Part shown: piece by piece, positions 4,079 through 44,214 of the stretch
Layout: every line of letters begins with the position of its first letter
Numbering within the stretch: position 1 is the stretch's first letter
Program-made: the position numbers and the translations under genes
NCBI GenBank assembly: GCA_050730875.1
Contig: JBOHNX010000003.1
Span: forward strand, 1 to 45,393
Origin: Candidatus Saccharimonadales bacterium
GTDB lineage: Bacteria > Patescibacteriota > Saccharimonadia > Saccharimonadales > EFPC-124
DNA: 45,393 nt
Reading direction: 5' to 3'
The notes under the pieces: generated by a model
Databases searched by the model: none
Seen by the model: only the letters and a program-made list of their open reading frames with translations
Told to the model about the DNA's origin: nothing

Positions 4079-5854
4079 CTAGTTATTAAAGAAGTTGTAC
4101 ACACGCCGCGAAAGATTGGCAAAATTAGCATATGTCCCACCCTTGCTCATTACTCCTATTATATAGGTCGACTTTGGCCCATACACAATCGCCACGTCGT
4201 GCACATACCCGTTATACCTGCCCACTTTGTTTGCAACGACCGTACCGCGCGGCACTCCAGCCGGTATGCCATCCCGCCAAATTTGGCGTTTCATAAGATT
4301 GAGCAAATAATTAGTGCTATGTTCGCTCATAAGCGTCCTCGAATGCAACCGGAGCAAAAAGTTAGTCTCGTCACGAACGGTTGAATGTTTATCGCCGCCA
4401 TTTTTGTTATTCAAATATGTGGCAGTAAAACCAGCCGCCTTTATCATGGCATCTGCTTTCTCCCATCCTAATAAATTGAGTAAAGAAATTGCGCAAGGGT
4501 TTGTAGAGCGGTGAATCATTTCTTTCAAACAAGCATCGACCGTCCAGCCCATGTCGGTCTTTTGGTTAAAGGTTATTTCGCCGCGGTCTATTTTTGTGAG
4601 CATTGCATAGGCGACAAACATTTTGAATGTACTGGCGGTCACAAAGGGCCTTTCTGGTTGCCACTGAGCGTAACGATTTTGGCCGCCTATTTCCCGCACA
4701 ACCACACCGAATGTGCCGTATGTTTGTCGCTCCCAATCTTCAATTATTGCCTGCAAGCCACTGCTCGCCTGCGAGTAAGTGCGCACATAACTAGCATTTG
4801 GCGGTGCATCAACAACTTGCAAGCCCAACGTATTGCGCGCCAACGGGTTCTTTAGCGCCGTTTCAATTTGCTGGATTGCTTTATCCATAGCAATCGATTG
4901 ACCCTGTGGTGCCGATGTACGGGCGATCTCCTGACCATCAAGCAGCGTTACCGTGATATCCCCTGGGTCAACGCCAATCGCATGGTTCAGCTCTTGGAGG
5001 TACGCTTTCATTGCCTCGTGGTCGAACTGCAGGCTAAGCTGCTTCGATTGCTCATCTTCAACAAATTGTAGCCACGCGCCAACTGCCTTGCGGTCTGGCG
5101 AAAATGCCTGGCCGCGCACTTTTATGCGGAGTTGCTGCGACAGGATTGCTTCAGCCTCGGCCTGTAGCGATTCGAGCTGTTGGCGCGACCGAGCGAATGG
5201 TACATCCTCTGGCTGCAATTGAACTTCGGTATGCGCCGTCACGGGTGCATACCTCACCTGCTGCATAACCGTCTCTAACGTAAATTTGTAGCCATTTTTT
5301 GCATCATCAATATGAACACGACCGTCTTTTACGCTAATCGTGGCATTAAATGCCGCCTGGCTGTCTTCACGGACAATTTGCTCGGCAAAGGCCTGTAGCC
5401 TTTCTTCGTCGGCAATTGCAATGAGCGCTAAATCCTGCGATTGCCAGACATGCAAGGCACCCGAAAATGGTATGAGCCGTTCCCACCACTCATACGCGAG
5501 CATTGCATCGGCCGAAGCCTCGGCATCAATACTCACGCCAGCGCTTTGCCACTTAGTAATCCACTCTCTGCTTGGTGTATGAATGCTCAGCTCACCAGTT
5601 TCGGCGTACTCGGTTAATTGCGCAACAATAGCGACTCGGTCTTTTCCGCCAATGTCGAAACCACCGACGCTAAGCATTGGCAGCGCGCGATCATTTGGAT
5701 ACAAAAATTGTGCAACGACACTCAATGCCGCCAAGATAACCAGGCACACCCCGGCAATATCGAGCACGCGCTGATATTTTTTGAGCCATTTAAGACCTAC
5801 ACTAGCAGAGTAGTGCGCACGATGCCTCTTCGCCGCCACGCTTTTTGTCGTCAT
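4079..5854 (-). CDS. membrane-anchored serine hydrolase with a C-terminal class A beta-lactamase / DD-peptidase-like domain
   Basis: 591 aa with an N-terminal TM helix. SxxK motif STFK, SxN-like STN and KTG-like KVG occur in the C-terminal about 230 aa. Confidence 0.75.
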   Translation of the reverse strand: MTTKSVAAKRHRAHYSASVGLKWLKKYQRVLDIAGVCLVILAALSVVAQFLYPNDRALPMLSVGGFDIGGKDRVAIVAQLTEYAETGELSIHTPSREWITKWQSAGVSIDAEASADAMLAYEWWERLIPFSGALHVWQSQDLALIAIADEERLQAFAEQIVREDSQAAFNATISVKDGRVHIDDAKNGYKFTLETVMQQVRYAPVTAHTEVQLQPEDVPFARSRQQLESLQAEAEAILSQQLRIKVRGQAFSPDRKAVGAWLQFVEDEQSKQLSLQFDHEAMKAYLQELNHAIGVDPGDITVTLLDGQEIARTSAPQGQSIAMDKAIQQIETALKNPLARNTLGLQVVDAPPNASYVRTYSQASSGLQAIIEDWERQTYGTFGVVVREIGGQNRYAQWQPERPFVTASTFKMFVAYAMLTKIDRGEITFNQKTDMGWTVDACLKEMIHRSTNPCAISLLNLLGWEKADAMIKAAGFTATYLNNKNGGDKHSTVRDETNFLLRLHSRTLMSEHSTNYLLNLMKRQIWRDGIPAGVPRGTVVANKVGRYNGYVHDVAIVYGPKSTYIIGVMSKGGTYANFANLSRRVYNFFNN

Positions 5855-6056
5855 GTTTTTTATTTTTCTAAGCTACATAAGCATTATACCCCTTCATAGA
5901 GAGAAAATTAACTGACAAAAGTAGCAGCAGCGCTTAGATTAGCTGCATGAGGAAAACCCTCATAGAAATTCTTATCTTTATAGGTTTTTTGTTTATCGTG
6001 GGGATCGCGATGGTTGGATCGCGTGCTTTGCAAGAAGGCGTTTTTGCGCCCTGGCC

Positions 6057-26399: not shown

Positions 26400-26464
26400 T
26401 CAGTAAATACTAACATGTAACAGGGGTATGGTCAATCAAGCCAACCTCTGTTAAAGTCATTACT

Positions 26465-26488
26465 ATGAGTTCACTTCAAATCGGTATT
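26465..26488 (+). other. ychF 5'-end mimic carried by the older element, now the left junction of the intact element
   Basis: ATGAGTTCACTTCAAATCGGTATT encodes MSSLQIGI, with three synonymous differences from 25371-25394. The frame is lost after this point. Confidence 0.55.
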
Positions 26489-26737
26489 CACAAGACGCAA
26501 CCATACCATTCGATATAACCTTCTCGATGCCTCCACTAGATAAAAGAACACGAGGTTATACGCCTCAACAGATCAAACAATTACAAGAAACAGTTGGCGG
26601 AGAGTGGTAAAAGGCTATGCTACCACAGGCACTAATAAATTTGGTTCATTATTTTGCTTGATATTAGACTGAGCATCCCTCCACAAATTTTTTTTCCAGA
26701 ATTCAGGTCGAGCAATTTCACCCCACCACACTCACCA

Positions 26738-28216
26738 CTATATTTTTCTTAAAACATTGAACGCTTCAACCATTGCCAGAGTATCTAACTTACAGTATTC
26801 AATCAGATCAGCAAATAGTACTTCTTGATCAATATGATCCTTATCGTCAATGACTGACTGCATCCATAGCCTCTGGGCAGATGCCCCTTCTTGTATACCT
26901 AAAACCTTATACGACAACTGAGGTGCTATTACAGGTAGTACATTTTTAATACTTGCACTTCCACAGAACTTCTTATCAACAAACCACCCTTTAGCAAATG
27001 GAATCATCAGGTCAACAATACGATCATTCACTTGGTTCAGAAATTCGCTATGATCTGAGACGATTTCAGCTAGTAAGCTATTGCACTTCTTCTCGAAACT
27101 CTCATTCCAAACAATTACAGTACCTTCATCGCCTATATGACTTCGTAATGCACCCGCTAATGGTTCACAAGGATTTGTAGCCTCACGATGTAAATATTCA
27201 ACATGTCGAAGATCAGCCTCTGGGCTATCAAGAATATGTAACGAGTACTGAAATGGTAATTGCTGATAAGGTCTTAGACCGTCGAAAGCAGGAACTATAC
27301 CCCCAAGTGTTTCGTAATCTAGAAAATATAATGGGAACTGTAGGTGGCTTAGAAATTCACGTATAGGTTCATGAAGAATTAATTGCTGATCTAACTTAGC
27401 AGCTTGTACTTGTAACGCTTGCTTTGGCGACAACTTATAGTCGTCTGGTATTTCTTGCAACGTGGTAATGCCCGAACTTTCAAATGCTTCAACCTTCGTG
27501 GCATTTAAGCCACACAGATCATAGATAGTGTCTTCTGGTAGATTATTCAGGGATTTATATATATCAAGCCATTCACCAAATGCACCATTCCCTGCCAATG
27601 AAGGAGATAGATCAGGTACTTCTGAGAGCTGCATCGTAGAGAGTGCTTCGTCAACATTAGAGGAGGTATATTCCTTTTTTGCTAGTACTTTCTCAGTCAC
27701 ATCACTGATGATCGAAAACTCTTGAGGATTAATATCACCATTCCGAACATATCCATTGTTCACATGTATTACGAACACGTTCCTTACCTTAAAGCCTGCG
27801 TCTTCGATTACTTTTACTTGGAATGCTAGATCAATAATATGTTCTGGCTTTGCACTAGTACTAGATTTGATTTCATACAGATCAAAAGTCTTATCGGCAA
27901 CCACATCTATCACATCACAGATACATGTTATCTGCCCTGCTAGAAAGCGTGCTTGAAAGATCGTTTTAACTCCACCCAATAGTGCTTCAAGTGTTTGTTC
28001 TGGTAGGGCTAAGTAACTTGCATAATCTGTAAATCCAAGTCTTACACCATTATCGAAATGCTTCTCGGCATAACCTTCAAACAAATTACCTGCATCAAAA
28101 ACTGCCTGAGTATTATCATCAATGTGTGGCAATTTGTCTTTATCATTCTTCTTCAACCATAGCCATGCAGGGTGCTTTAGGTAAAGTAAGTAATCAGATT
28201 TCGACAATAGCATCAT
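26738..28216 (-). CDS. DUF2779-family protein: N-terminal PD-(D/E)xK nuclease plus a C-terminal exonuclease-like domain
   Basis: 492 aa. It starts LSKSDYLLYLKHPAWLWL. D...DLYEIKSS forms a (D/E)xK motif. YFLDYETLGGIVPAFDGLRPYQQLPFQYSLHIL is the hallmark block I associate with DUF2779. Confidence 0.6.
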   Translation of the reverse strand: MMLLSKSDYLLYLKHPAWLWLKKNDKDKLPHIDDNTQAVFDAGNLFEGYAEKHFDNGVRLGFTDYASYLALPEQTLEALLGGVKTIFQARFLAGQITCICDVIDVVADKTFDLYEIKSSTSAKPEHIIDLAFQVKVIEDAGFKVRNVFVIHVNNGYVRNGDINPQEFSIISDVTEKVLAKKEYTSSNVDEALSTMQLSEVPDLSPSLAGNGAFGEWLDIYKSLNNLPEDTIYDLCGLNATKVEAFESSGITTLQEIPDDYKLSPKQALQVQAAKLDQQLILHEPIREFLSHLQFPLYFLDYETLGGIVPAFDGLRPYQQLPFQYSLHILDSPEADLRHVEYLHREATNPCEPLAGALRSHIGDEGTVIVWNESFEKKCNSLLAEIVSDHSEFLNQVNDRIVDLMIPFAKGWFVDKKFCGSASIKNVLPVIAPQLSYKVLGIQEGASAQRLWMQSVIDDKDHIDQEVLFADLIEYCKLDTLAMVEAFNVLRKI

Positions 28217-28219
28217 AAA

Positions 28220-29371
28220 TCAAAACCAGTCCGATAAATCTTCAACAGGTTCTTCGTGCTCTTTAATTCGTTCTAGATTTTCAATCGTAGATGAAAGCTT
28301 ATTGAGTAATTCTGAATATGTCCATATCTCTAGGGTGGAGCCAAGTGAGCGTACTAAATTTTCTCGATTCTGTTTCCAGCGTGCATCATCGCTATGTTTC
28401 CCAATTACAATAATGCACTTTCCTATATGAGCTTGCCCTTTAATTCCTAATTTCTCTAACTCTGCGTCACCTGCTGGCTTTGCTTCAAGGGTACTCTTAT
28501 ACTCTAGAATTTGAGGTACAGCACGTGCTAAATGTTTGTGAATCTGATAAGTGCTAGTAGGATTATTAATGCTGCTAGATTGAGTAACTTCAAATATATC
28601 ATCTGCTGGGCTTTTCAATTCAATAAGCACGTGATCAACGTATTTAGAGCCTACCCTAGTAAGAACATCGAATTTTTTCGAACTCACCGAACCTTCACGC
28701 TGGAAATCAATGTACTCTAGCCCAAAGATCATGCACCTTTGTTGCCTGTACTTGTGGCCGTCTTCATCGAGCCAATTTTGAACATCTGTTTCAGAAGCAT
28801 TTGTCTCGATAAATTCTTCAAGCTTTTCTTTATAACTTTTAAGTAGCCTGATTGTAGATTTAGTTCTTAATAGCTCTGAAACCTCAATTCCTAGTTCATC
28901 TGCCATTTTAATAATCTCATCATTATTAGATGCATTATTCATATATTCCTTTAGCTGATCAGCAGAAATAACATGGTATGAACCGTCAAAATCACCGAAA
29001 TCGATCGTTTCTTTGAACTTAAATAGAAACGCTACCATTCTCCAAAACTCCCGATAACCGTCAGCACCGTCTGAAAACGGTATTCTTCGACTACGTGAGC
29101 TCGCAGGAGCATTTACATCGTTAAACTGATCGTCAACCCTTCGAAAGATTAATCTAGGCTGGTACTTATTGTCAGTGCCTGATCGTTTGAACTCCGTGTC
29201 GCAGACGGTCAAATTATTTCCTTGTGGTGACTTTGCAAGAATAAAGCCTTTGTAAGTTTCACCCGTAGCGTTATTGACTAAGTTGCAATCAAAATGATCT
29301 TGCTGATTTATAGTCAGCGAATCAATATCATTCTCTGGAACTGTTAGGTCGAAGTATCCAGACGTATCCAC
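28220..29371 (-). CDS. Shedu-like (DUF4263) nuclease-domain protein
   Basis: 383 aa with a GTG start 2 nt after the upstream stop and GAGGAG upstream. The C-terminal block FDVLTRVGSKYVDHVLIELKSPADDIF...AVPQILEYKS...KCIIVIGK fits the SduA PD-(D/E)xK core pattern. Confidence 0.55.
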   Translation of the reverse strand: MDTSGYFDLTVPENDIDSLTINQQDHFDCNLVNNATGETYKGFILAKSPQGNNLTVCDTEFKRSGTDNKYQPRLIFRRVDDQFNDVNAPASSRSRRIPFSDGADGYREFWRMVAFLFKFKETIDFGDFDGSYHVISADQLKEYMNNASNNDEIIKMADELGIEVSELLRTKSTIRLLKSYKEKLEEFIETNASETDVQNWLDEDGHKYRQQRCMIFGLEYIDFQREGSVSSKKFDVLTRVGSKYVDHVLIELKSPADDIFEVTQSSSINNPTSTYQIHKHLARAVPQILEYKSTLEAKPAGDAELEKLGIKGQAHIGKCIIVIGKHSDDARWKQNRENLVRSLGSTLEIWTYSELLNKLSSTIENLERIKEHEEPVEDLSDWF

Positions 29372-29373
29372 GT

Positions 29374-31587
29374 CTACTCCTCGTCATCCGTAGTATTACC
29401 GCCGTAGATCTTAAGATCAACCTTAACACTATCGTGTGGGAGATTAAGTGCATCAACTACATTCAGAACAAGCTGACGCTTTGCATTTGTATTTGTACCC
29501 GTATCGATAAAGTAGCCAGTATTGTAAATTTCTCGACTCGAACCAAAAGCTGTGGCGTCAGTCTTAATATACTTAGAGAGCCACTCATCATTTGTGATTG
29601 TATCGACAAAACGATCAGGACTACTCTCGTAAATAGCCTCGATAATCAAGTCGACTGCATCTGCCCATGTAGAAACTGATTCTTTTTTGCCAAAGACTTC
29701 GACAGACTTAATACCCTTACCCTTGAGATCGATGTCGTCGAGTAGATAAACCGATGTGTCCTCCTCGATTGGCTGGAATGAGGTTATGGGTAGTGGCCAT
29801 ATACTATTTAGCTTGGTTAGCCACCATATCTGACGCTCCTTGAGTGTAGCCTCGTTCCACTCGTCCTTTTGCTTAATCCAGTCATTGATTGGCAGTGGAC
29901 TAGCATCGAATCCGACTGCAACACCCTTAACAACAAGTGTTTTCTTGTCTTTATCCTGAAAGCCATTAAAAGCACGATTGGAGTACTCTGAATTGTAGCC
30001 AGTCAAAGTTAGGTTTGCCAACGTGTGCAGATACTCGCTATGAATACGCTCGTAATCTTCGCCTAGCATATTCTTCCAGCTCTGACCGTATTCACCGCTG
30101 TTGATAGTCTGCGGCATGATGTGTTCGATAGTGGGCTGGAAACCGTCTTCAACCATACGACGCAATGTAGCTTTCGACTCTTTGTTCTTGGCATCGGTAG
30201 ATGCTAAAACATAGCACAAGATAGAGTTACCGTGTTGCTCATAAAATGGATAAGTACGTACAGCTAACTCGAAATCATCATTGTTTGGCATCTGGGTTTG
30301 CCCCGTTTGGGTCAAGAAGATGTACTTAAGGACTTCAACGTATTTAGCCTCTTTGTCACGTCGTAAATAATCAAGAGCTTGCTTATGAAGCGACGCCATA
30401 AAACGGTCCACGCTTGTAACGTAGTAATTGACGATTATACGACGAGAGAAATATGACTCAAGTAGCTTGAACACTGTTACTAACTCATCGTCTGTGAGCT
30501 GTCCGTCTGCATGATAGCCAAGTGCTGACATTGCAAATGGAATATAAATATCGACTCTCATGTAGCGTAGTCTGAAAATTGTTTCAGCTATTCCTGCATA
30601 CTGACCAAACTCAGCACTGTTTTTTACCTTACTTGTATCTGCCAACTTCAAAAGTTCATAGAACTTTAGCGATCGCTTAATGTCGCTATAGAACTTATCA
30701 ACCAGCTCTTTCTCCTGTTCATCTCCAACATGTCTACCGAATTGCTTCTTAAACTCTGGATACACTTCAGGTAATTTAATATTCGACTGTTTCTTTGAGA
30801 TAAGGTAGTAACGGAAGAAGTCAGTAATGGGGTCTTTGTCAGTGGCATATAAAGTACGTTCTATAGGTCGCCAGTATTCGTTATAAACGTGATTACGTAA
30901 TTCATCGCCGTTCAGCATAAGGGCGAAATTACGAATCTTATCACCAGCCTCAAGCGGTTTGCCCGTAGAATTAATACTTTCGAAAACACGCTGTGGATTG
31001 TCATCGTTTGCTACCAACGTTAATACAGCAATCTCAAAGTTCTCAAGGCCGTTGATGTATTTGTCTAGCCCAGTCTTATCTGCAAAATACTCACGGAACT
31101 TAGAGTAAACAATATAAACATTATTCTGGTGGTCTTTTTCGAGCTGTGAAGCCTCACCTTTGGCATCAAAAATATGCTGCAATACTTCGTTATCGGTTGT
31201 AACAGTACGTAGCTTTACACGATTATTGTCCATGTCTTTGTTGATTAAGTACTGGTACTCAATCTTTTCAACCGTAGTATCTGGGTCTTCTATCAGTGCT
31301 GGATTCTTCTTAGCGAGGTGGTATATAGCAGAAATCATCAACAAAGAAGTGGTGACACGCTGTTGACCGTCAATAATAGCTCTTGAATAGGCTTTTCCAG
31401 TGTCCTTAACCTGAACGACAGTGCCAAAATAGTGGTTCTTCCCCTTAGCGACACACTCTTCGAGATCACTTAGAAACTCTTCGACATTCGATGTTTGCCA
31501 TGAGTAGGGTCGCTGAAATTCGGGAATTTCGAAGAACATTCCAGGAGTATAAAGAAATTCCTTCATATTACTTTGGGCAAAAATCAT
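29374..31587 (-). CDS. DUF262-DUF1524 (GmrSD/BrxU-like) type IV restriction enzyme candidate
   Basis: 737 aa. IPEFQRPYSW and IIDGQQR are the DUF262 ParB-like NTPase motifs. TIEHIMPQT...HTLANLTL is a DUF1524 His-Me finger. ATGA overlap with the upstream gene. Confidence 0.75.
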   Translation of the reverse strand: MIFAQSNMKEFLYTPGMFFEIPEFQRPYSWQTSNVEEFLSDLEECVAKGKNHYFGTVVQVKDTGKAYSRAIIDGQQRVTTSLLMISAIYHLAKKNPALIEDPDTTVEKIEYQYLINKDMDNNRVKLRTVTTDNEVLQHIFDAKGEASQLEKDHQNNVYIVYSKFREYFADKTGLDKYINGLENFEIAVLTLVANDDNPQRVFESINSTGKPLEAGDKIRNFALMLNGDELRNHVYNEYWRPIERTLYATDKDPITDFFRYYLISKKQSNIKLPEVYPEFKKQFGRHVGDEQEKELVDKFYSDIKRSLKFYELLKLADTSKVKNSAEFGQYAGIAETIFRLRYMRVDIYIPFAMSALGYHADGQLTDDELVTVFKLLESYFSRRIIVNYYVTSVDRFMASLHKQALDYLRRDKEAKYVEVLKYIFLTQTGQTQMPNNDDFELAVRTYPFYEQHGNSILCYVLASTDAKNKESKATLRRMVEDGFQPTIEHIMPQTINSGEYGQSWKNMLGEDYERIHSEYLHTLANLTLTGYNSEYSNRAFNGFQDKDKKTLVVKGVAVGFDASPLPINDWIKQKDEWNEATLKERQIWWLTKLNSIWPLPITSFQPIEEDTSVYLLDDIDLKGKGIKSVEVFGKKESVSTWADAVDLIIEAIYESSPDRFVDTITNDEWLSKYIKTDATAFGSSREIYNTGYFIDTGTNTNAKRQLVLNVVDALNLPHDSVKVDLKIYGGNTTDDEE

Positions 31588-32750
31588 GATTCCTCCTTCT
31601 TATTCGCTACGATCTGCTGTAAATCTTTGCTGTAGTGGTAATCGACAATATCACCGTTCTGAAGCATATTAACCGCCTGTTCGATAGCTAGTAACGGTAC
31701 TGAATACCATTCACTAGGAACGTACTCTCGCCCATCAGGTCCAATAATTGTCAGGTCTACTTTTGCATCTGAAAATATACGATGAATGAAGTGTTCGACT
31801 TTCTGAGGGTTATAGTCACCTGTCAGCACATAACTATCTACTACTTCAACACCTGCCATGAGGTACGTAGGGTCTTTCTCAGCGTCTTTAATGCGGTCTA
31901 CGATGGTTGTTGAGGTAAAGCCAATCTTGTGTAGATCTTTCACGTTCTGAACGGCAGGATCAGCACTCTGTGATCTCAGAATGTATATATAGCCCTTAAT
32001 CTCGTCTTCATCCGTCAGTCTTTTATAAACACTGTCTTCGTGAGCTGGCACAACTGCATAGCCATCTTCATAGAGACGCATTGATAACGAGCGTCGGTAC
32101 ATATTCGATTCTGAACCGTTCTCGTAGATCACTCGAAAACGCTCTTTATTGCGGTCGTATACCCTCTTTTTATCAGTTGCATCTACGATACGCACCATCT
32201 GACCTGCATGAACGTAGTATTTGCCTAGATGAAGTTGTTCAACTGAGACATAACGCTGTAACTTCAATTTACCTTCGCCTAGCAGTCGCTGTTGCTCCTC
32301 AAAACCACTTTTGAAAGAGTCAAAGTCTTCAGCTCGTTTGCGTTCTGCACGTTCTTTTACTGGACGAGGCTTTGAAAGAGCTTCTTTCACCTTAAATATC
32401 TGATCACCAGTGCTACTAAATAAACCGAATGCATCACTTTCAAACAATTCATCAACAGACTTCGGTGCTTCAGGTACTTCTAATAATCCCAATTCATCTA
32501 TCAGTGTCAGTGCTTCAGCTTTGGTCTTATCGGTCCGAATAGAATTCAAGCGAGCCGCTAAAGAAGCTTCGCTAATATCGTTTGATTCAATTTCTGGTAA
32601 ACGATCATTAATCTTAACAAAGTCAGTAATCTGCTGAAATGAAGCAGCCAAACGATCGTCAGCAGTGACAGGAGCTTGTTTCTTCGTCGGAACAAACATG
32701 TGTCCATCACCAGACTCAAACAGCTTTACTAGATCGTCTGATAGGTCCAT
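31584..32750 (-). CDS. GIY-YIG superfamily (T5orf172/MUG113-type) nuclease-domain protein
   Basis: 388 aa. The C-terminal block is KGYIYILRS...LHKIGFTSTTIVDRI...EHFIHRIF...EWYSV. The start shares one nt with the helicase stop (TAATG). Confidence 0.6.
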   Translation of the reverse strand: MDLSDDLVKLFESGDGHMFVPTKKQAPVTADDRLAASFQQITDFVKINDRLPEIESNDISEASLAARLNSIRTDKTKAEALTLIDELGLLEVPEAPKSVDELFESDAFGLFSSTGDQIFKVKEALSKPRPVKERAERKRAEDFDSFKSGFEEQQRLLGEGKLKLQRYVSVEQLHLGKYYVHAGQMVRIVDATDKKRVYDRNKERFRVIYENGSESNMYRRSLSMRLYEDGYAVVPAHEDSVYKRLTDEDEIKGYIYILRSQSADPAVQNVKDLHKIGFTSTTIVDRIKDAEKDPTYLMAGVEVVDSYVLTGDYNPQKVEHFIHRIFSDAKVDLTIIGPDGREYVPSEWYSVPLLAIEQAVNMLQNGDIVDYHYSKDLQQIVANKKEES

Positions 32751-34726
32751 TACTTATTTGTCTCCGTTGCTTTGGTCTGTTGCCATTTAGCATAACGAGC
32801 CGTTAGATATGCCTGTGCTTGAGCTAGGAGCTTTTCATTCTTATCAGTTGCATTTAATGCAGGATATTTACCATTATGAGCTACTACAAATGCTTTGATG
32901 TGCGGAACTAGAGCTAGTGCATCTTCATCGCTCATGTCGATACGTGAACCTGCGATTGTATCTTGTATGACACGGAACACGTCTGTACCGACTTTCTTAG
33001 ATATGACCTCAAATGCATGTTGGAACGGGTTAATTGAGTCAATGAGGTCAATGCTCAACTCGTCGAGATTAACAAAGCTGTTCGCCATCGTAATGAATTT
33101 CTTATTACCGTCTTCTGTAATTTTTGCAGTCTTAAATGCAAGGTTGCTTGCAAGGTACTGTCGAGTTACTTCAACTTCTTCATCACTCAATCCAGGCAAC
33201 TTTTCACGAATAATCTTTGATTGTAGGTGCTTCATATACTCACCCGTATGACCATTAGCGGCCGCACGTTGCACTTGTGTGTCTTGCAGAACAGCAGCGG
33301 TCAGATCTTCAAGTTCTGTAGCTAGAATATGCTTCACACGCTCTGTAGGTGGTTTCTTTAGACCTTTTACAAAGACCTCACCTGCTTTTGCTTTTTGGTC
33401 TGGTGAAGTACGAGGTGTAAACGTAAAGTTCGGTGCAAGTACCTGCTCCATAAGCAATGACGCAGTAATCGCTTTGAGCATGTTATTCACTGAAATTTGT
33501 ATGTCATCACTCGTACCGTTAGGCATAACTATAAGGTTCGTAAACTGTGCATGAGTCTTGTTATAACTATCTCTCGTACAACGTCCAATAATCTGAACTA
33601 TTTCGGTCAGACTTGCCCGATACCCAATCGTAAGAGCTTGTTCACACCACGGCCAGTCAAAGCCTTCTTTAGCCATTCCTAACGCTACGATAATATCTAC
33701 ACCGTCAATATCTTCACGGGCAACTTCACTGAGGTATTTTGTAATTTTCGCACGATGCGTTGGGTCGTCATCGACTAGGTTAGCCACTTTACGAGTCACA
33801 CCATCTTTGTCGATTACAAGCTCAAGACCTGTTTCGCTGTCTTGTGAATCCCATTCGCCTATAATGTCGTAAACCTTTTGAACTTCTTCATGCTTTCCAA
33901 CTTGTGTCGCTTCTTTTGAATTCACATTAGGTATATGAATAATCGTCTTTTTAGTCGTATCAAGCACTGCATCAAGTGCACCATCGTCTAAGTAACTTCC
34001 CTGATAAAAGTGATAACCGATTCCAAGCGTTTCTAGGTAGGTGTAGCCATTAAGCTGTTCATAGTAGGTATACGTGACCTTATCGAATTCTGCTTCATCT
34101 TCTGGTGTCAGAATCGGTACTGCATCGCCACGAAAGTATGAGCCAGTCATCGCAATAATCTGTACGTTCGAATTACGCATAACGTTATGCAATAGATCAC
34201 CTAGACGGCTATTCTCACTCACTGAGACATGATGAAATTCGTCGATAGCTAAAACTGAATCATTAAATGATTCAACATCTAGGTCCTCTGATTCAAAAGC
34301 AAAACGAAGTGTCGCATGAGTACAAACAAGTATCTTGTCTTCGCCATTCATAAAGCGAATGAACGCCTTTACCTTACTTTTATCATCACCTGTCCCTAAA
34401 CAAAGGTTGTTGCGATCTTCGACATCCCAATCAGAGAAGAAGCCCCCTTCACTGAGCGGTACATTTGAGAACGACGAACCAATAGATTTTTCAGGTACGG
34501 CGACAATGACTTTTTTCTTGCCCTGATTCATAAGCTTGTCTAGACCGATATACATTAGTGCTCGTGACTTACCAGATGCTGGCGGTGCTTTAATCAGCAA
34601 GTGATTACTGCTTCTCTTCTCGAATGCCCGACGCTGCATCTCACGCATACCCATTTCATCTGTCTTAGTAGACGCACCAGTCTTATCGTATTTAACGTCG
34701 ATGATATTCAATGTTTCTTCGTTCAT
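32750..34726 (-). CDS. SF2 DExH helicase (type III Res-like ATPase)
   Basis: 658 aa. Walker A PPASGKSRA, motif II AIDEFHH, motif III MTGS and motif VI QIIGRCTRD. ATGA overlap with the MTase stop. Confidence 0.8.
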   Translation of the reverse strand: MNEETLNIIDVKYDKTGASTKTDEMGMREMQRRAFEKRSSNHLLIKAPPASGKSRALMYIGLDKLMNQGKKKVIVAVPEKSIGSSFSNVPLSEGGFFSDWDVEDRNNLCLGTGDDKSKVKAFIRFMNGEDKILVCTHATLRFAFESEDLDVESFNDSVLAIDEFHHVSVSENSRLGDLLHNVMRNSNVQIIAMTGSYFRGDAVPILTPEDEAEFDKVTYTYYEQLNGYTYLETLGIGYHFYQGSYLDDGALDAVLDTTKKTIIHIPNVNSKEATQVGKHEEVQKVYDIIGEWDSQDSETGLELVIDKDGVTRKVANLVDDDPTHRAKITKYLSEVAREDIDGVDIIVALGMAKEGFDWPWCEQALTIGYRASLTEIVQIIGRCTRDSYNKTHAQFTNLIVMPNGTSDDIQISVNNMLKAITASLLMEQVLAPNFTFTPRTSPDQKAKAGEVFVKGLKKPPTERVKHILATELEDLTAAVLQDTQVQRAAANGHTGEYMKHLQSKIIREKLPGLSDEEVEVTRQYLASNLAFKTAKITEDGNKKFITMANSFVNLDELSIDLIDSINPFQHAFEVISKKVGTDVFRVIQDTIAGSRIDMSDEDALALVPHIKAFVVAHNGKYPALNATDKNEKLLAQAQAYLTARYAKWQQTKATETNK

Positions 34727-37539
34727 TTTGTTTTCTCCCTTTCAGTCATTTGCTCGTACAGTGTGAATAGATCTGCAAGTCGCTCTTCATCTGTATTATA
34801 AGGCTTAGAGCGGTACAATTTGTCTACTACAAGATCTAATTCATGGTGAGCTTGGCGTAAATCTTCTGGCATCTTATCGGGATCGTACATTTCAGAGAGT
34901 GTTTTACCAGTATGATTCTGTCGAGTAAATATTACGTTACGAGCTTTCGACGCAACTTCCTTCTCTTCATGCTCCAATAATGGGCGAAGTGGAAACGTAT
35001 TGTATACAAGTGAAGAAGAGTACCTATAATCAGTCTTCAATTTGCCTGATACTGATCTCATCCAAACCATATGCATCCGTGAGCTAATGATTCCAAATAC
35101 ATGTAGAGGGGCTGAGGATAATACAAAAGAGGCGTTATTTACTACCGTCTCTGGCTCGATGTAGCCTATCGGAACGTATTCTCTACGCTCCGATGAAGTC
35201 GATGGAACGATAATCGAATTGTCGGGAGGCATAACAAATTCACGAAACTGATAGGGCTTATTGGCCATGTCTTGAGCACCTTTGTCTTTGCGTCCTAAAC
35301 GGAATTCACGAACTGCATCTACTCGTTCTCTGACGAACTCATATTTGTAAGCCTCTTCGAATTCAGCATCTGAAATCCATAAGCACCATCGAGATTTCTG
35401 ACTTAGGTAATCTTGTCCACTTACAAATTGCTTAATAAATCTATCTAGTCCTGAGTGTTGAGCAACGGCTTTCTGCATAGTGTCTGTGTCAAATATGAGA
35501 TGACCGCCATCTACTGGCTTGCATCCGTATCCCATTCGTGGAATGTGAGATAGAGGCTTAGTACGCTTTATGACTATGGTGTCACTTCCCTCGCTCAAGT
35601 ATGCATTGATGTTGTCTACTTCAGCACGAACCCCGTGATTATATATATACTTCGTTGCCTTCATAGGTGTTCTCAGCCCAATAATTGCTACTGTAACGCC
35701 CGCAACATTACGAGCACCATTTGTCCATTTGAATGAAGTATGTGCAAAACCGATCTCAACATCTTTTTCAAATATATAAGGCCATAGCAATGCTACTTGC
35801 TCACCCTGACAAATTGAATTAGTAGTTACGAACGCTAACTGAGCCTTTGTACCACTTATGTAATCAGCACCTAACTTAAACCACGGAGCGATAAAATCGA
35901 GATTCTTATAATTGCTGAAGTTCTTAAATACACGTGTCATCCCCGCTTTTTGCTTTTGGTCCTGAAGGCTTGAACCTAAGTATGGTGGATTGCCTATCAA
36001 GTAAATCTCATCCCAAGTCTCTTTTTCTAGCTCAAGCTCAAGAGGTTCATCGTCAAAATCTATTAATGCACTCTGTTCTGGTCCTGTCTTAACACCAGAT
36101 TTGTGTGGCACATTCGGGCACACGTCTTTCCAGTCTAGTATCGTCGAATCACCATGAATAATGCTCGCATTATCTTTAAGTGGAATGAGCTTAATCTCTC
36201 TACCAAACTGCTGTTCGAAGTCGATGTTCATTTGATGCTTAGCAAGGTATAGCGAAAGAATTGCTATCTCATGTGGGAAGTCATCTATTTCGATACCGTA
36301 GAAGTTATCTAGCTTAATTCGAGATTCAAGCTTACCTGCTAATTGTTGACGTTTATGCTCGTCACCGTAGACTCGCTCTATGATAGCGTGTTCGATTTTA
36401 CGAAGCTCTTTATAGGCGATAATCAAAAAGTTACCACTGCCACAAGCAGGGTCAAAAATTCTGATCTTGCTGATTCTATCCCAAATTCTTAGAAGTCTCT
36501 GGTCATTGTCATAATACTTATCAAACTCTTCACGTAGCTGATCAAGAAAGAGCGGTTCAATAGTCTTCATGATGTTCGGAACACTCGTATAGTGCTGTCC
36601 GTGACTGCTTCGCTGCTCTTCATCAACAATGCTTTGAAACATAGAACCGAAGATGTCAGGATTGATCTCTGCCCAATTCTGATTACCACAGTCAAGAATG
36701 AGCTTACGTGCTTGAGCGTTAAATTTAGGGATACCAATGCCGTGCTTTTTGGTGTCAAAGATCGTACCGTTGACATATGGGAACTTACTAAACGGACTCG
36801 TAAACCCTGCCTTGTTTTCAGTATCGAGTGCATCAAACAGAGTTATCAAGAAACTGTCTAAATCACTGCCATCGGTTTGGGTGTAATCTTTGATAGCATT
36901 CGTGAACATCGTTTGTTCATCACGACTGAATACTCTGGTGTCTTCTGCGAAGAAACAAAACAATAAACGACTAAAAAATACGTTCAAGTCATGTCTGAAA
37001 TTGCTGTGTGGGTCAGTTAGTTTCGCACGATTGACCTTCTCGATCTCAGCATACAAATCTTTCATCTTATCAGCAGCACGACGATCAGCTACAGCTTCAG
37101 TCTTCTCGTCAGTGATTTCATCGCCTGTCCAACCGTAGAAAAAGTCTACATCACGATCAATGTCACGCAAATTAATATCAAGACGACTGTTCTTTTTTGT
37201 ATCTACAGCTACTAGACGTTCGTAGTCTGAAACAATCAGGTATCTAGGGTTATAGCGAACGACTAACGGGTCTACCGCCAATTCTTCAGCAGTAGAGTGC
37301 AGCTTATTAGCATCAGCTACATGCTTGAAGTAGACTACTCCCCTTTGTAATATTTCATTATCTTTATCTTCAGCAAGATTCAATGATCCTTCACGAAGCT
37401 TTGTGATGGCAGATCGTGCCCGACCGTATGCAGCTAATAGCTCGTAAACGAAGTCGATGTTGTATGTTTCACGGTTGGCAATTTCAGCCACATTATTCTG
37501 TGCTTCTGCAAATGTAAGTCTAGCCATTTTGTTTGCCAA
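34723..37539 (-). CDS. MmeI/PglX-like gamma-class N6-adenine DNA methyltransferase with TRD; N-terminal nuclease motif apparently degenerate
   Basis: 938 aa. Motif I FDPACGSGNFLI and motif IV GNPPYLGS. The N-terminal PRYLIVSDYERLVAVD aligns by eye with MmeI PRYVLVCDFQRFRLTD. Where MmeI has D...EMK, this protein reads VVYFKHV. Confidence 0.75.
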   Translation of the reverse strand: MANKMARLTFAEAQNNVAEIANRETYNIDFVYELLAAYGRARSAITKLREGSLNLAEDKDNEILQRGVVYFKHVADANKLHSTAEELAVDPLVVRYNPRYLIVSDYERLVAVDTKKNSRLDINLRDIDRDVDFFYGWTGDEITDEKTEAVADRRAADKMKDLYAEIEKVNRAKLTDPHSNFRHDLNVFFSRLLFCFFAEDTRVFSRDEQTMFTNAIKDYTQTDGSDLDSFLITLFDALDTENKAGFTSPFSKFPYVNGTIFDTKKHGIGIPKFNAQARKLILDCGNQNWAEINPDIFGSMFQSIVDEEQRSSHGQHYTSVPNIMKTIEPLFLDQLREEFDKYYDNDQRLLRIWDRISKIRIFDPACGSGNFLIIAYKELRKIEHAIIERVYGDEHKRQQLAGKLESRIKLDNFYGIEIDDFPHEIAILSLYLAKHQMNIDFEQQFGREIKLIPLKDNASIIHGDSTILDWKDVCPNVPHKSGVKTGPEQSALIDFDDEPLELELEKETWDEIYLIGNPPYLGSSLQDQKQKAGMTRVFKNFSNYKNLDFIAPWFKLGADYISGTKAQLAFVTTNSICQGEQVALLWPYIFEKDVEIGFAHTSFKWTNGARNVAGVTVAIIGLRTPMKATKYIYNHGVRAEVDNINAYLSEGSDTIVIKRTKPLSHIPRMGYGCKPVDGGHLIFDTDTMQKAVAQHSGLDRFIKQFVSGQDYLSQKSRWCLWISDAEFEEAYKYEFVRERVDAVREFRLGRKDKGAQDMANKPYQFREFVMPPDNSIIVPSTSSERREYVPIGYIEPETVVNNASFVLSSAPLHVFGIISSRMHMVWMRSVSGKLKTDYRYSSSLVYNTFPLRPLLEHEEKEVASKARNVIFTRQNHTGKTLSEMYDPDKMPEDLRQAHHELDLVVDKLYRSKPYNTDEERLADLFTLYEQMTEREKTK

Positions 37540-37812
37540 ATTTTAATAACATATTATGCAATATTGTACCCTAAAAATACCCCTGTAGATAGGTGTAAAT
37601 TCTTGATCTTAATTACACAGCTATTAAGCAGCAATAATTAAGCCCCCTTCCTCCCGTATTCTCCCTGCTTCCTAGCGTCTTTTACGGTTCAAATGAGAAA
37701 TATACCGTCTCTAGCTTTGGGTTATCTCCTACGACCCCTCAGTGCGTCATCGGTAAACCAAAACCCGTTCATCTTTTGCTTATCAAAAACACTGTGCAAG
37801 GCTGCGGAAATT

Positions 37813-37849
37813 TTTTGGCCAGATTTTCGACCTCTCAACGTCTTTTTCC
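37813..37849 (+). repeat. direct repeat copy 1 (37 nt)
   Basis: TTTTGGCCAGATTTTCGACC is identical to 38511-38530. The following 17 nt match with small indels. Confidence 0.8.
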
Positions 37850-38510: not shown

Positions 38511-38547
38511 TTTTGGCCAGATTTTCGACCCTCTAACGCTATTTTTC
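38511..38547 (+). repeat. direct repeat copy 2 (37 nt)
   Basis: See copy 1. It abuts the stop codon (38548-50) of the Mrr-domain gene. Confidence 0.8.
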
Positions 38548-42319: not shown

Positions 42320-42511
42320 ATGATAGACAAGAAATATTACACAGTACAGGAAGTTGCCGACTTATTAAAACTTCACTGGCAGAGTGTACTAACCTACATA
42401 AAAAACGGAGAGCTAGAAGCCGTAAAACTCGGTAAGGGTTACCGTATCAGTCAACAAGCTCTGGATTCATTCATAGCAAAACGCACAACCAAAACGAAAG
42501 GAACAAAATAA
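42320..42511 (+). CDS. xis: excisionase-family (MerR-like HTH_17) DNA-binding protein, candidate recombination directionality factor
   Basis: I prefer ATG 42320 (GGAG upstream). YYTVQEVADLLKLHWQSVLTYIKNGELEAVKLGKGYRIS is the classic excisionase-type HTH. TAATG overlap with the recombinase start. Confidence 0.7.
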   Translation: MIDKKYYTVQEVADLLKLHWQSVLTYIKNGELEAVKLGKGYRISQQALDSFIAKRTTKTKGTK

Positions 42512-44214
42512 TGTTGAGAGCGGCACTATATGCTCGTGTGAGCACAGAACTACAAAAAGACGAACAAACTGTCAAAAGCCAGCTATCTGAAGTCAAGAAT
42601 GCAATCATAGATGACGGTAACGCACTTATTGAAAGTTGTGAATACATTGATGAAAGTTGGTCTGGTGCAATACTGGAACGCCCTGCCCTTGATTTAATGC
42701 GTCAAGATGCACGTGAGAGAAAGTTCGATATTTTATACGTGTACGACAAAGGACGTCTAGCTCGAAAGTACGTATACCAAGAAATAGTAATTGAAGAACT
42801 AACCAATTTAGAGATTAAATTTAAGAGCTTGCACGACATTAACGGAAGCACTCCAGAAGAAGTAGTCATGGGCGGTGTTATGGGTCTGTTCCACGAATAT
42901 GAGCGTGTAAAGATTACTGAACGTTTTCGTATTGGTAAGCTCAATAAGGTTCGTTCTGGCAAGCTGCTGGGCTATCAAGCCCCTTACGGCTACGATTACA
43001 TACCTATCAAGGGCAAGGGCTTAGATAAGATCAACGGCAAATTTGTGATCAACGAAGAAGAAGCCAGGGTAGTCAAAATGATTTTCGAATGGATTGGCGT
43101 TGAATGCGTATCAATTAAAGAAGTTATTCGTCGCTTGTACGATCTAGGGATACCGCCTAAGAAACAAAAACGTGACACTTGGACTAATGGTCCAATACAC
43201 CGCATGCTGAAAAATGAAACCTATATCGGTAAGCACTTCTACTACAAGTCTGAGAGCGTAATGACTAAAAACCCTATGGCTAAGACACAGAAGAAGTACC
43301 AACACCGTCATTCAATGAAGGGCAGTCGTAAAACCCGACCACGTGATGAATGGCTAGAGGTAGAAGTAGATCGTATCATCAGTGATGAATTGTTTCAAAA
43401 GGCCAAAGCACAGATTAAAAGCAACGGTAAACTTAGTCAACGCTTCAAGAAAAACCCCTACCTTTTTAGCGGTTTAATATCTTGTCCGTGTGGTGCAAAC
43501 AGAACTGGTGAAGGACAGAATGGTCATTTCTACTACCGTTGTAACGATCGCTTACTGAAATTTCCCAAGCCTCGTTCTTGCTTTGAAGCTGGTGTGAACG
43601 TGCAGGTATTAGACACTGTTGGCTGGGCTAAACTCTGTGAATTAATGACAGACCCTACCCTGTTGCAACAGCAACTTGACCGTTATGCAGAAGAAAAGAA
43701 GCTACTGGCTGGTCAAAGCCCAAAGAAAGATGAATTGAGAATGCAGGTCAAAGCCTTAGAGCAAGAAGAACGTCGCTACGTGAAAGGTTGGGGTCAAGGC
43801 ACGATGTCAGAGACTGTATATACAGATCAGATGAATAGTGTTGCTAGACGCCGTAAGGAGCTTACAGACATGCTTAATAAGCCTGAGGCGGACAAGTTAG
43901 CACAATTACGTGACATTGATTTAGAAACATCTGTAGAACCTTTCAAGCAGTATCTAAGTAATCTCGGCTACGAAGATAAGCTTTTTACTGTAAGGAAGAT
44001 TGTTGATAAAGTAATAGCAACGAAGGAGAACGTAAGAATATGCGGAAAAATACCAGCATATGCTACTTCATTAACTGTAAACAAGGTCGGGTTAGATGTT
44101 GAGCATAGCGATACAAGAGACACAACACAAGCAATTAATCAAGAACAGGTTGGGTTGAATGCTAAGCATTGGCATTGTCGGCCTACCAAACGTAGGCAAA
44201 TCGACGCTGTTTAA
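42511..44214 (+). CDS. large serine recombinase (integrase); its 3' end crosses attR and overlaps ychF
   Basis: 567 aa. AALYARVSTELQ carries the catalytic Ser. Resolvase and recombinase domains, a zinc ribbon (CPCGANRTGEGQNGHFYYRCNDR) and a coiled coil. The last 18 codons lie inside ychF in another frame. Confidence 0.9.
   Translation: MLRAALYARVSTELQKDEQTVKSQLSEVKNAIIDDGNALIESCEYIDESWSGAILERPALDLMRQDARERKFDILYVYDKGRLARKYVYQEIVIEELTNLEIKFKSLHDINGSTPEEVVMGGVMGLFHEYERVKITERFRIGKLNKVRSGKLLGYQAPYGYDYIPIKGKGLDKINGKFVINEEEARVVKMIFEWIGVECVSIKEVIRRLYDLGIPPKKQKRDTWTNGPIHRMLKNETYIGKHFYYKSESVMTKNPMAKTQKKYQHRHSMKGSRKTRPRDEWLEVEVDRIISDELFQKAKAQIKSNGKLSQRFKKNPYLFSGLISCPCGANRTGEGQNGHFYYRCNDRLLKFPKPRSCFEAGVNVQVLDTVGWAKLCELMTDPTLLQQQLDRYAEEKKLLAGQSPKKDELRMQVKALEQEERRYVKGWGQGTMSETVYTDQMNSVARRRKELTDMLNKPEADKLAQLRDIDLETSVEPFKQYLSNLGYEDKLFTVRKIVDKVIATKENVRICGKIPAYATSLTVNKVGLDVEHSDTRDTTQAINQEQVGLNAKHWHCRPTKRRQIDAV

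Follow-up and report, generated by a model that had tools for sequence, protein, structure and literature searches.

A DnmA(YeeA)-YeeB-YeeC-like gene trio in a Saccharibacteria defence island

Three overlapping genes in a Saccharibacteria (TM7) genome encode an MmeI-like methyltransferase (MTase), a separate helicase and a GIY-YIG protein, and we asked whether together they constitute a restriction-modification (RM) system of a new kind or belong to a family that has already been described. A preliminary description of the sequence had treated them as a split Type ISP-like module in which the MTase has lost its own nuclease site, and could not assign the arrangement to a characterised RM type. 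Here, we examine the catalytic residues of the three proteins, the constancy of their association across genomes, and their relation to known systems.

Layout of the locus

The trio is set in a low-GC defence island within the window, by which we mean the whole 45,393-nucleotide stretch that was analysed. The ORF list places three overlapping frames on the minus strand at exactly the coordinates that the preliminary description had given (31584 to 37539). All three genes are intact and together run from 37527 to 31584; they encode a homologue of MmeI (934 aa), a DExH helicase (658 aa) and a T5orf172/GIY-YIG protein (388 aa). While the list opens the first frame at a TTG (37539), homologues and the database gene call start the gene at the ATG at 37527, and we therefore use the 934-aa numbering unless noted. 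The features discussed below are as follows.

34723-37539, minus strand: ORF 1 of the ORF list, 938 aa from TTG
34723..37527, minus strand: yeeA/dnmA-like gene, a 934-aa MmeI-family gamma-class N6-adenine MTase with a target recognition domain (TRD)
37123..37527, minus strand: N-terminal domain of the yeeA/dnmA-like protein (aa 1-135), a relic of the MmeI PD-ExK nuclease domain without catalytic residues
34978..35607, minus strand: TRD (aa 641-850), a hypervariable specificity module (Pfam MmeI_TRD, E 6e-74)
32750..34726, minus strand: yeeB-like gene, a 658-aa SF2 DExH helicase/translocase (Pfam DEAD and ResIII)
31584..32750, minus strand: yeeC-like gene, 388 aa (Pfam MUG113 and T5orf172)
31596-32003, minus strand: C-terminal T5orf172/GIY-YIG domain of the YeeC-like protein (aa ~250-385)
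29374..31587, minus strand: GmrSD-type (DUF262 and DUF1524) gene (Pfam GmrSD_N 7e-33, GmrSD_C 7e-22)

The MTase stop and helicase start overlap by 4 nt, and the helicase and GIY-YIG genes by 1 nt (ORF list). The GmrSD-type gene, which the preliminary description missed, overlaps the yeeC-like gene by a further 4 nt and is followed by two more defence genes on the same strand at spacings of 2 and 3 nt (ORF list, Pfam). GmrSD is probably co-transcribed with the trio. A promoter and terminator scan found such sites to be rarer than in shuffled sequence, and an Rfam search over the whole window returned no match.

Catalytic residues of the three proteins

All five MmeI domains were detected in ORF 1 by Pfam (MmeI_N 2e-18, MmeI_hel 7e-20, MmeI_Mtase 2e-98, MmeI_TRD 6e-74, MmeI_C 4e-22). 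The PADLOC model REase_MTase_IIG matched the protein end to end (E 1.6e-287), and phmmer aligned it with MmeI (5HR4) at E 3e-171. A Foldseek search with the full-length model, in which pLDDT is low across the MTase core, likewise gave 5HR4 as best match (E 2.6e-55) and returned only MmeI and other gamma-class MTases, with no domain-level match for the N-domain. The SAM-binding motif FDPACGSGNF (358-367) and the NPPY motif (513-516) are invariant across 35 homologues, and single-strand adenine methylation is the likely activity.

Because the MmeI nuclease domain is disordered in 5HR4 (PMC4833311), the N-terminus was compared with that of MmeI by sequence instead of structure. The Pfam MmeI_N match spans residues 13-164 (17-168 in the 938-aa numbering), and the phmmer alignment begins at MmeI residue 102 and query residue 92. 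The preliminary description had recognised an MmeI-like scaffold in a quoted string, PRYLIVSDYERL, and this string is indeed present in the MTase and aligns with PRYVLVCDFQRF of MmeI. It had also read VVYFKHV at the position of the D...ExK catalytic triad, and this segment aligns with ILLIEMK of MmeI, the strand that bears E80 and K82. We aligned 152 family N-termini by MAFFT with MmeI residues 9-215, which were taken from the PDB sequence alignment via a nuclease-positive plasmid homologue. In this alignment the catalytic D70, E80 and K82 of MmeI correspond to E58, K68 and V70 here, and MmeI E25 and E51 correspond to R19 and R45. Across the 152 members the E58 column holds E, D or T, the K68 column K or R, and the V70 column V, I or T. 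The alignment consists mostly of Patescibacteria sequences and its register is uncertain by ~1 residue, but no conserved E-x-K was found within one residue of the D70/E80/K82 register. An intact PD-(D/E)xK site is thus absent from the MTase N-terminus in the 152-sequence alignment, and the earlier reading of a lost nuclease site stands. A Lactobacillus plantarum plasmid protein, a bona fide MmeI-type comparator, retains D...EQK. The AF2 model of the N-domain (pLDDT 82-90) has the order a-a-a-b-b-a-a-b-b-b-a, and many of its residues are invariant across 35 homologues. The N-domain is a relic of the MmeI PD-ExK domain, and we propose that it now acts as a docking or regulatory domain.

The helicase (Pfam DEAD 1e-8, ResIII 3e-6) is the most conserved of the three proteins, with 52-58% identity across phyla. 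Its motifs APPASGKS (47-54), DEFHH (162-166), TGSYF (194-198) and QIIGRCTRD (378-386) are essentially invariant among 52 helicase sequences from many phyla, each residue being identical in at least 90% of sequences. It matched a generic 'DNA helicase' family in PHROGs (E 5e-12) and 265 plasmid records, while PADLOC and NCBIfam gave just weak partial matches (Cas3, PbeA, Dnd restriction helicase). Against all PDB sequences at E≤1 the best match was Cas3 (E 0.007), with no meaningful relative, and the 'split Type ISP' label of the preliminary description accordingly holds as an analogy only.

In the GIY-YIG protein, Pfam MUG113 (3e-10) and T5orf172 (1e-8) fall within residues 253-362, and the AF2 model shows a helical N-terminal part, a small beta-barrel and a C-terminal T5orf172/GIY-YIG domain. 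Twenty diverse YeeC-like homologues all retain G253, Y256, E347, W348 and Y349, and conservation among them reaches at least 90% at K275, I276, G277 and R286. The family comprises 279 clusters (50% identity) at E≤1e-30. The protein had no family match in NCBIfam, PHROGs or PADLOC and no meaningful relative among PDB sequences; Foldseek returned just weak EF-P/eIF5A/Tudor-like matches (E > 1e-3) to the middle beta-barrel.

Constant gene order and exchange of the TRD

A search of 185,579 species genomes with a GIY-YIG (YeeC) profile yielded 50 loci from many phyla. The order MTase, helicase, GIY-YIG was found in 45 of these, three of which have an MTase gene truncated where the contig stops. Of the other five loci, four are likewise truncated at the ends of their contigs and one (L031) is what a deletion has left. 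Six contigs reached via MTase homologues carry the same trio. The three genes thus always travel together and in this order. A trio on a Bacillus sp. BD59S plasmid aligns end to end with the proteins of the window (41%, 58% and 33% identity), and another is borne by a plasmid of Moraxella osloensis, a species named by Morgan et al. (2009). Plasmids of A. baumannii carry truncated helicase fragments (51-61% match). Remnants named yeeB/yeeC have been reported beside blaOXA-23 in Tn2006/Tn2009, and we infer that these fragments are the same remnants. In other members RhuM, Fic/DOC, AlbA_2 ATPases, DarTG or toxin-antitoxin pairs lie between the MTase and helicase genes. Decay was also seen among relatives: L007 has frameshifts in both MTase and helicase, L031 is reduced as noted above, and L058 has a split MTase.

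The constancy of the order bears on what the nuclease gene is. Homing endonucleases and phage genes can carry T5orf172 and GIY-YIG domains, and the yeeC-like gene might on that ground be an independent mobile homing-type gene that adjoins an RM gene by chance. Yet none of the 50 loci holds an intact YeeC-like gene with enough upstream DNA that is without the helicase and MTase, the genes overlap, and a PHROG search with the YeeC-like protein found no match. The order therefore argues that the nuclease gene is not a free-standing homing gene, and we regard a chance neighbour as scarcely credible. The 4-nt overlap between the GmrSD and yeeC-like genes raises a related possibility, namely a four-gene system whose effector nuclease is GmrSD and not the GIY-YIG protein. 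A close GmrSD homologue (55-96% identity) does follow the trio in seven related Saccharibacteria loci (L001, L002, L006, L007, L009, L010 and L011), but it is absent from all other loci, other Saccharibacteria included; L028 and L031 have just a 25%-identical GmrSD-type gene, located upstream. The identity of GmrSD (57% to L007, 96% to L011) does not follow that of the trio, which points to separate modules. We consider GmrSD as effector very improbable and reject it as a fourth subunit, a close homologue being missing from most loci; it is an accessory type IV-like nuclease outside the conserved core.

Relatives whose other MTase domains are 64-90% identical share only 32-46% identity in the TRD. 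At the nucleotide level, positions 34905-35776 have no megablast match to L007 or L011, yet both flanks match. The TRD has thus been swapped between near-identical systems, and such mosaicism is what a subunit selected for new specificities would show. The locus has its own TRD, and hence presumably its own recognition site.

Family, mechanism and known systems

In the account of Morgan et al. (2009), MmeI homologues without PD-ExK "invariably" have a YeeB-like helicase gene and a YeeC-like GIY-YIG gene beside them, and YeeA/YeeB/YeeC would form an enzyme of three subunits resembling type I; YeeA by itself was negative in nuclease assays (PMC2731913). Four features of their 'second set' are present here: similarity to MmeI beyond the first ~100 residues, no PD-ExK, a helicase gene next and then a GIY-YIG protein. 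The arrangement that had seemed unassignable is therefore this set, and neither the architecture nor its three-subunit interpretation is new, both having been described in 2009 (PMC2731913). The locus is very probably an intact member of the DnmA(YeeA)-YeeB-YeeC family, an assignment in which the Bacillus and Moraxella plasmid trios and the A. baumannii helicase fragments stand in for the B. subtilis proteins. What survives of the preliminary description is the loss of the catalytic site and the constant helicase and GIY-YIG partners. Membership in BREX or DISARM was considered and rejected, as the NCBIfam BREX MTase model scored 17-33 bits against cut-offs of 400-900 and PADLOC DrmMI and PglX matches were partial; Hma membership was rejected on PADLOC, NCBIfam and locus comparison.

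The set has been studied further (PMC7261158; PMC9973331; bioRxiv 10.1101/2021.05.05.442762). B. subtilis DnmA methylates one adenine on one strand of GACGAG (PMC7261158). Deletion of dnmA, yeeB or yeeC left transformation and infection by three phages unchanged, and phage genomes are not depleted in the DnmA motif (PMC7261158; PMC9973331). The dnmA deletion is not toxic, which fits a type I-like dependence on the MTase and equally fits inactivity. In Vibrio crassostreae, inactivation of yeeAB restored phage sensitivity, with protection confined to one phage subclade. In the literature we found no biochemistry or solved structure for the helicase or nuclease of the family, and no report of DNA cleavage or ATP hydrolysis by any member.

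Taken as a whole, the locus is best explained as a DnmA(YeeA)-YeeB-YeeC member with a type I-like restriction mechanism, a reading to which we give a probability of roughly 70%. The steps of that mechanism, modelled on the proposal of Morgan et al. (2009) and on how type I, III and ISP enzymes work, we favour by a small margin over their being wrong. YeeA would bind a short asymmetric site through its TRD and methylate one adenine on one strand, as DnmA does at GACGAG. At unmethylated sites the conserved relic N-domain would recruit or license YeeB, which would translocate along DNA, driven by ATP, and the GIY-YIG domain of YeeC would cut. With one strand alone carrying the mark, cleavage would probably require two unmodified sites or a collision, so that host DNA would escape just after its replication. 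GmrSD, probably co-transcribed in this lineage, would extend protection to phages with modified DNA. We put at about even the chance that the three subunits form a functional restriction enzyme that depends on ATP and cuts with its GIY-YIG protein, and in which the former PD-ExK surface, its acidic residues replaced by R19, R45 and K68, recruits motor and nuclease. The family would then constitute an RM class of its own, with an operon as open to embedded cargo genes as those of type I.

Two other readings concern what the intact trio does. It might defend the cell without type I/ISP-like translocation and cleavage at unmethylated sites, either by BREX/DISARM-like exclusion or by another form of sensing in which the MTase marks self. 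Its MTase core is common to PglX and DrmMI (partial matches; Foldseek PglX/BrxX), the DnmA motif is not avoided by Bacillus phages, and the Vibrio protection is restricted to a single subclade. We nevertheless judge this unlikely, as PADLOC matched no BREX or DISARM partner (PglZ, BrxC, DrmA, DrmB) among the six operon genes scanned, nor was one seen among the neighbours, the BREX model scored about 32 bits against its cut-offs of 400-900, and an intact GIY-YIG nuclease is always present. Somewhat less probable still is that the trio is a relic, in which the MTase serves as an orphan epigenetic regulator and restriction by the helicase and nuclease has ceased, as concluded for B. subtilis, where restriction and phage protection are both absent (PMC7261158; PMC9973331). 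Some relatives are visibly decayed (L007, L031, L058), but all three ORFs here are intact, helicase and nuclease catalytic motifs are (near-)invariant across phyla, the TRD is exchanged between otherwise near-identical systems, and the Vibrio yeeAB genes protect against phage.

The family is widespread. The prediction that it forms a type I-like enzyme whose cutter is the GIY-YIG protein dates back 17 years, and the genetics conflict, with no effect in B. subtilis versus protection in Vibrio. The locus contributes a further member, intact and with all its motifs, from an ultra-small episymbiont, and shows TRD exchange between near-identical motor and nuclease modules. It is not a discovery and leaves the overall picture unchanged; it is of use as a candidate for reconstitution and for annotating a defence island correctly.

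Among known systems, the locus is closest to DnmA-YeeB-YeeC of B. subtilis and yeeAB of V. crassostreae 7F1_18. As in those systems, an MmeI homologue that has no PD-ExK and diverges from MmeI over its first ~100 residues comes first, then a DEAD/DExH helicase and then a GIY-YIG/T5orf172 protein, and the setting is a low-GC defence region gained by horizontal transfer. The locus differs in its Saccharibacteria host, its own TRD and the GmrSD gene fused into the operon, and its proteins (934/658/388 aa) slightly exceed in length those of the Bacillus plasmid member (881/640/393 aa). Homology to the MmeI family (Type IIL/IIG; E 3e-171 to 5HR4) extends throughout the spacer, MTase, TRD and C-terminal domains, and the N-domain falls in Pfam MmeI_N, but the conserved N-terminal PD-ExK triad of Type IIL members is lost with its ExK residues, and nuclease and motor are supplied in trans. 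Type ISP enzymes (LlaGI, LlaBIII) likewise combine a nuclease, an SF2 motor, a gamma-class MTase and a TRD for an asymmetric site, and are a plausible functional analogue in translocation and collision; they are, however, single polypeptides with an Mrr-type nuclease, whereas here there are three polypeptides and a GIY-YIG cutter, and Pfam found no Mrr domain in the three proteins. As in Type I RM, the subunits are separate, restriction is expected to depend on the MTase/specificity subunit, and operons tolerate embedded cargo genes, as seen in other trio members. Unlike in Type I RM, the TRD is fused to the MTase, and none of the six operon proteins matched an HsdS or HsdR model; the site is expected to be contiguous and asymmetric, with one-strand modification, and the nuclease is a separate GIY-YIG protein instead of the PD-ExK domain of HsdR.

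Gene layout of the low-GC island

Between ~25 and 43 kb of the window, GC content falls to 0.37-0.42 vs about 0.50 elsewhere. According to the ORF list, six minus-strand genes within this stretch overlap or are separated by gaps of ≤4 nt, and all six were identified by Pfam and PADLOC. The coordinates and peptide strings quoted in the preliminary description were correct.

Genes of the operon and flanking features
37527-34723, minus strand, MmeI-like methyltransferase (MTase), 934 aa
34726-32750, minus strand, helicase, 658 aa
32750-31584, minus strand, T5orf172 (GIY-YIG) protein, 388 aa
31587-29374, minus strand, GmrSD, 737 aa
29371-28220, minus strand, Shedu SduA-like protein, 383 aa
28216-26738, minus strand, DUF2779/Cas4-like gene, 492 aa
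38548-39705, Mrr_cat gene, upstream of the first three genes (the trio)
42511-44214, large serine recombinase (Resolvase + Recombinase + Zn_ribbon_recom), close to the island's high-coordinate edge

The MTase ORF reaches 938 aa from a TTG at 37539; the database gene call and homologues begin at the ATG instead. The trio's neighbours are other defence genes (Shedu SduA-like, DUF2779/Cas4-like and Mrr_cat), and a DUF2779 homologue lies ≤8 kb from the trio, at varying positions, in at least 13 Patescibacteria loci. The large serine recombinase, which adjoins a YchF GTPase gene, is a candidate for the island's integration module. Upstream of the MTase gene, 1 kb of non-coding DNA holds two copies of a direct repeat 698 bp apart (37813-37847 and 38511-38545; 20 nt exact, TTTTGGCCAGATTTTCGACC; 35 nt at 80%), one of them just past the Mrr gene stop, and this repeat region had no Rfam match.

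We compared window 26431-37751 with two Saccharibacteria relatives, L007 (CP064992) and L011. DNA identity to L007 is 90.8% over the helicase and GIY-YIG genes, the GmrSD, Shedu and DUF2779 genes are 85.8% identical to L011, and the part encoding the target recognition domain (TRD; 34905-35776, MTase codons ~584-874) has no DNA match to either. Ahead of the MTase gene, the sequence that the window shares with L011 is limited to the nearest ~210 nt. The island is a mosaic, its modules reshuffled among related genomes. For relatives with 64-90% identity in the other MTase domains, the TRD figure is 32-46%, which shows TRD exchange between related systems.

Co-occurrence of the three genes

Contigs that encode MTase homologues (57-81% identity) were looked up in four queries, which gave six loci, all with the trio in identical order and in differing surroundings. 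We also scanned 185,579 species, one genome per species, with a profile (A1) of 20 YeeC-like proteins, and read the gene content of the 50 resulting loci by tblastn with the window proteins. These loci come from Saccharibacteria, other Patescibacteria, Actinomycetota, Chloroflexota, Bacteroidota, Pseudomonadota, Thermodesulfobacteriota, Clostridia and others. MTase, helicase and GIY-YIG genes follow one another in that order in 45 of them (the MTase being cut by a contig end in three); four lack upstream DNA (L020, L022, L037, L041) and one, L031, is a deletion remnant. The possibility that T5orf172 is a stand-alone gene, named in the preliminary description as a refutation, found no support, as no locus with enough upstream DNA has a free-standing intact YeeC-like gene. 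Co-occurrence of the three genes is obligatory, and the genes are translationally coupled. Close homologues of GmrSD lie after the trio in seven close Saccharibacteria relatives and in no other loci, and GmrSD similarity is uncoupled from trio similarity; GmrSD is therefore an accessory gene rather than a subunit.

The MTase and helicase genes are separated by further genes in members from Bacteroidota, Pseudomonadota and a Moraxella plasmid. These inserted genes encode RelB/YafQ with a DarT-like DUF4433 protein and a macro-domain protein; SLFN_AlbA_2 and HATPase_c_4 proteins; RhuM; HTH and Fic/DOC; or a PDDEXK_3 protein with an IS200 transposase. Two such proteins had no Pfam match. Type I restriction-modification (RM) operons embed similar cargo genes.

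Intervening cargo, by locus
L057, 4268-6618
L040, 4315-5973
L045, 4242-5909
L046, 256-1929
L053, 4339-5997
L047, 2146-3147
L051, 395-2730
L048, L050 and L056, ~4420-5930
L033, 4660-6079

Several relatives are damaged. In L007 (3234-7998, CP064992.1) the MTase and helicase are scattered over several frames, through frameshifts or assembly errors; in L058 (2743-5418) the MTase is annotated in three pieces; and in L031 (7767-8630) the MTase N-terminus runs, as the result of a deletion, directly into the C-terminal half of the GIY-YIG gene. Plasmids of Acinetobacter baumannii commonly carry truncated YeeB-like helicase fragments with 51-61% identity to the window protein (hits H58-H66). Remnants named yeeA/yeeB/yeeC are reported to adjoin blaOXA-23 in Tn2006/Tn2009 (PMC9258068), and the plasmid fragments probably represent these. 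A Methylobacterium currus plasmid (L059, 2467-8199, NZ_CP089299) pairs an MmeI-like MTase with nuclease and helicase in a different way: its MmeI homologue, with an N-terminus that looks nuclease-positive (FIDLFW...LLVEQKS), precedes genes for a phospholipase D family protein and then a Cas3' helicase.

The MTase N-domain and the catalytic motifs

The MTase matches all five MmeI Pfam domains and is covered end to end by the PADLOC type IIG model (E 1.6e-287), and its alignment with MmeI (PDB 5HR4; E 3e-171) begins only at MmeI residue 102. Since the crystal structure leaves the nuclease domain of MmeI disordered (PMC4833311), structural comparison with the N-domain was impossible. We therefore recovered MmeI residues 9-215 from a PDB alignment via a homologue that is nuclease-positive, retains D...E-Q-K and is encoded on a Lactiplantibacillus plantarum plasmid, aligned them with 152 non-redundant family N-termini, and checked the conserved MmeI residues listed by Morgan et al.

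MmeI residues, window residues (934-aa numbering) and family columns (152 sequences)
E25, R19, R in 137
E51, R45, R in 135
D70, E58, E 62, D 45, T 32
E80, K68, K 131, R 15
K82, V70, V, I or T

Moving the register by one residue produced no conserved E-x-K among the 152 N-termini. The N-domain is among the best-conserved MTase regions and is modelled as an alpha/beta domain (pLDDT 82-90). It is not decaying: it is conserved but catalytically stripped.

Methyltransferase, motor and nuclease motifs are all intact. FDPACGSGNF and NPPY are invariant among MTase homologues, and helicase motifs I (APPASGKS), II (DEFHH), III (TGSYF) and VI (QIIGRCTRD) are essentially invariant, with ≥90% identity at each residue across 52 sequences drawn from many phyla. 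The helicase is the most conserved of the three proteins across phyla (52-58% identity; MTase, 40-46%; nuclease, 32-37%). The T5orf172 protein retains G253-Y-I-Y256, K275-I-G277, R286, H323 and E347-W-Y; in its AF2 model, a helical N-part leads through a disordered linker (109-133) to a small beta-barrel (~160-235) and then to the GIY-YIG domain, and Foldseek gave only weak EF-P/Tudor-like matches for this model. Sequence search detected no solved relatives of the helicase or T5orf172 protein.

Family membership and proposed mechanism

The preliminary description took the trio for a split Type-ISP-like module, with a nuclease-dead MmeI-like MTase, a helicase and a GIY-YIG cutter, an arrangement that it could not assign to a characterised RM type. 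The observation was correct and the functional reading is reasonable, but the arrangement, with the same hypothesis, goes back to a 2009 publication and has been the subject of some genetics. Morgan et al. (2009; PMC2731913) divided MmeI homologues into two sets, one with the PD-ExK motif and the other "invariably" flanked by a YeeB-like DEAD helicase and a YeeC-like protein bearing GIY-YIG motifs. All four features of the latter occur here: the MTase resembles MmeI outside its first ~100 residues, it lacks PD-ExK, the helicase is YeeB-like and the GIY-YIG protein YeeC-like. As surrogates for B. subtilis YeeA/YeeB/YeeC we used the trios of a Bacillus sp. BD59S plasmid and a Moraxella osloensis plasmid, which also bears all three genes; the BD59S proteins align end to end with those of the window, MTase N-terminus included (41%, 58% and 33% identity). 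Membership among MmeI-family REases, Type ISP, Type I, BREX and DISARM was rejected, as each of these classes has a defining feature that the trio lacks. The trio is a new Saccharibacteria member of a known family.

Neither YeeA alone nor the M. osloensis homologue alone showed endonuclease activity, and Morgan et al. proposed a type I-like system working with single-strand modification, in which the MmeI-like subunit confers specificity and protection while its N-domain contacts separate helicase and nuclease subunits (PMC2731913). We found no biochemical reconstitution of the family in the literature. In B. subtilis, YeeA (renamed DnmA) makes m6A at GACGAG, and neither growth nor transformation was affected (Nye et al., 2020; PMC7261158); synteny is conserved across species, and the locus, which gave no protection against three Bacillus phages, was called a relic (Fernandez et al., 2023; PMC9973331). 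These data are compatible with the two main rival explanations, namely defence by a non-classical mechanism in which the methyl mark is read, and a role as a relic or orphan MTase. Vibrio crassostreae 7F1_18 regained sensitivity to one phage subclade when yeeAB was inactivated (Piel et al., bioRxiv 10.1101/2021.05.05.442762).

The likeliest mechanism is that of a translocating restriction enzyme of three polypeptides. The TRD would direct binding and hemi-methylation of an asymmetric site, and the N-domain would recruit YeeB at unmodified sites. ATP would then drive translocation, and the GIY-YIG domain would cut, probably only when two sites or two complexes cooperate, because, with a single strand marked, one of the two daughter duplexes carries no mark after replication. 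The same problem confronts MmeI as well as type III and type ISP enzymes, which solve it by two-site rules.
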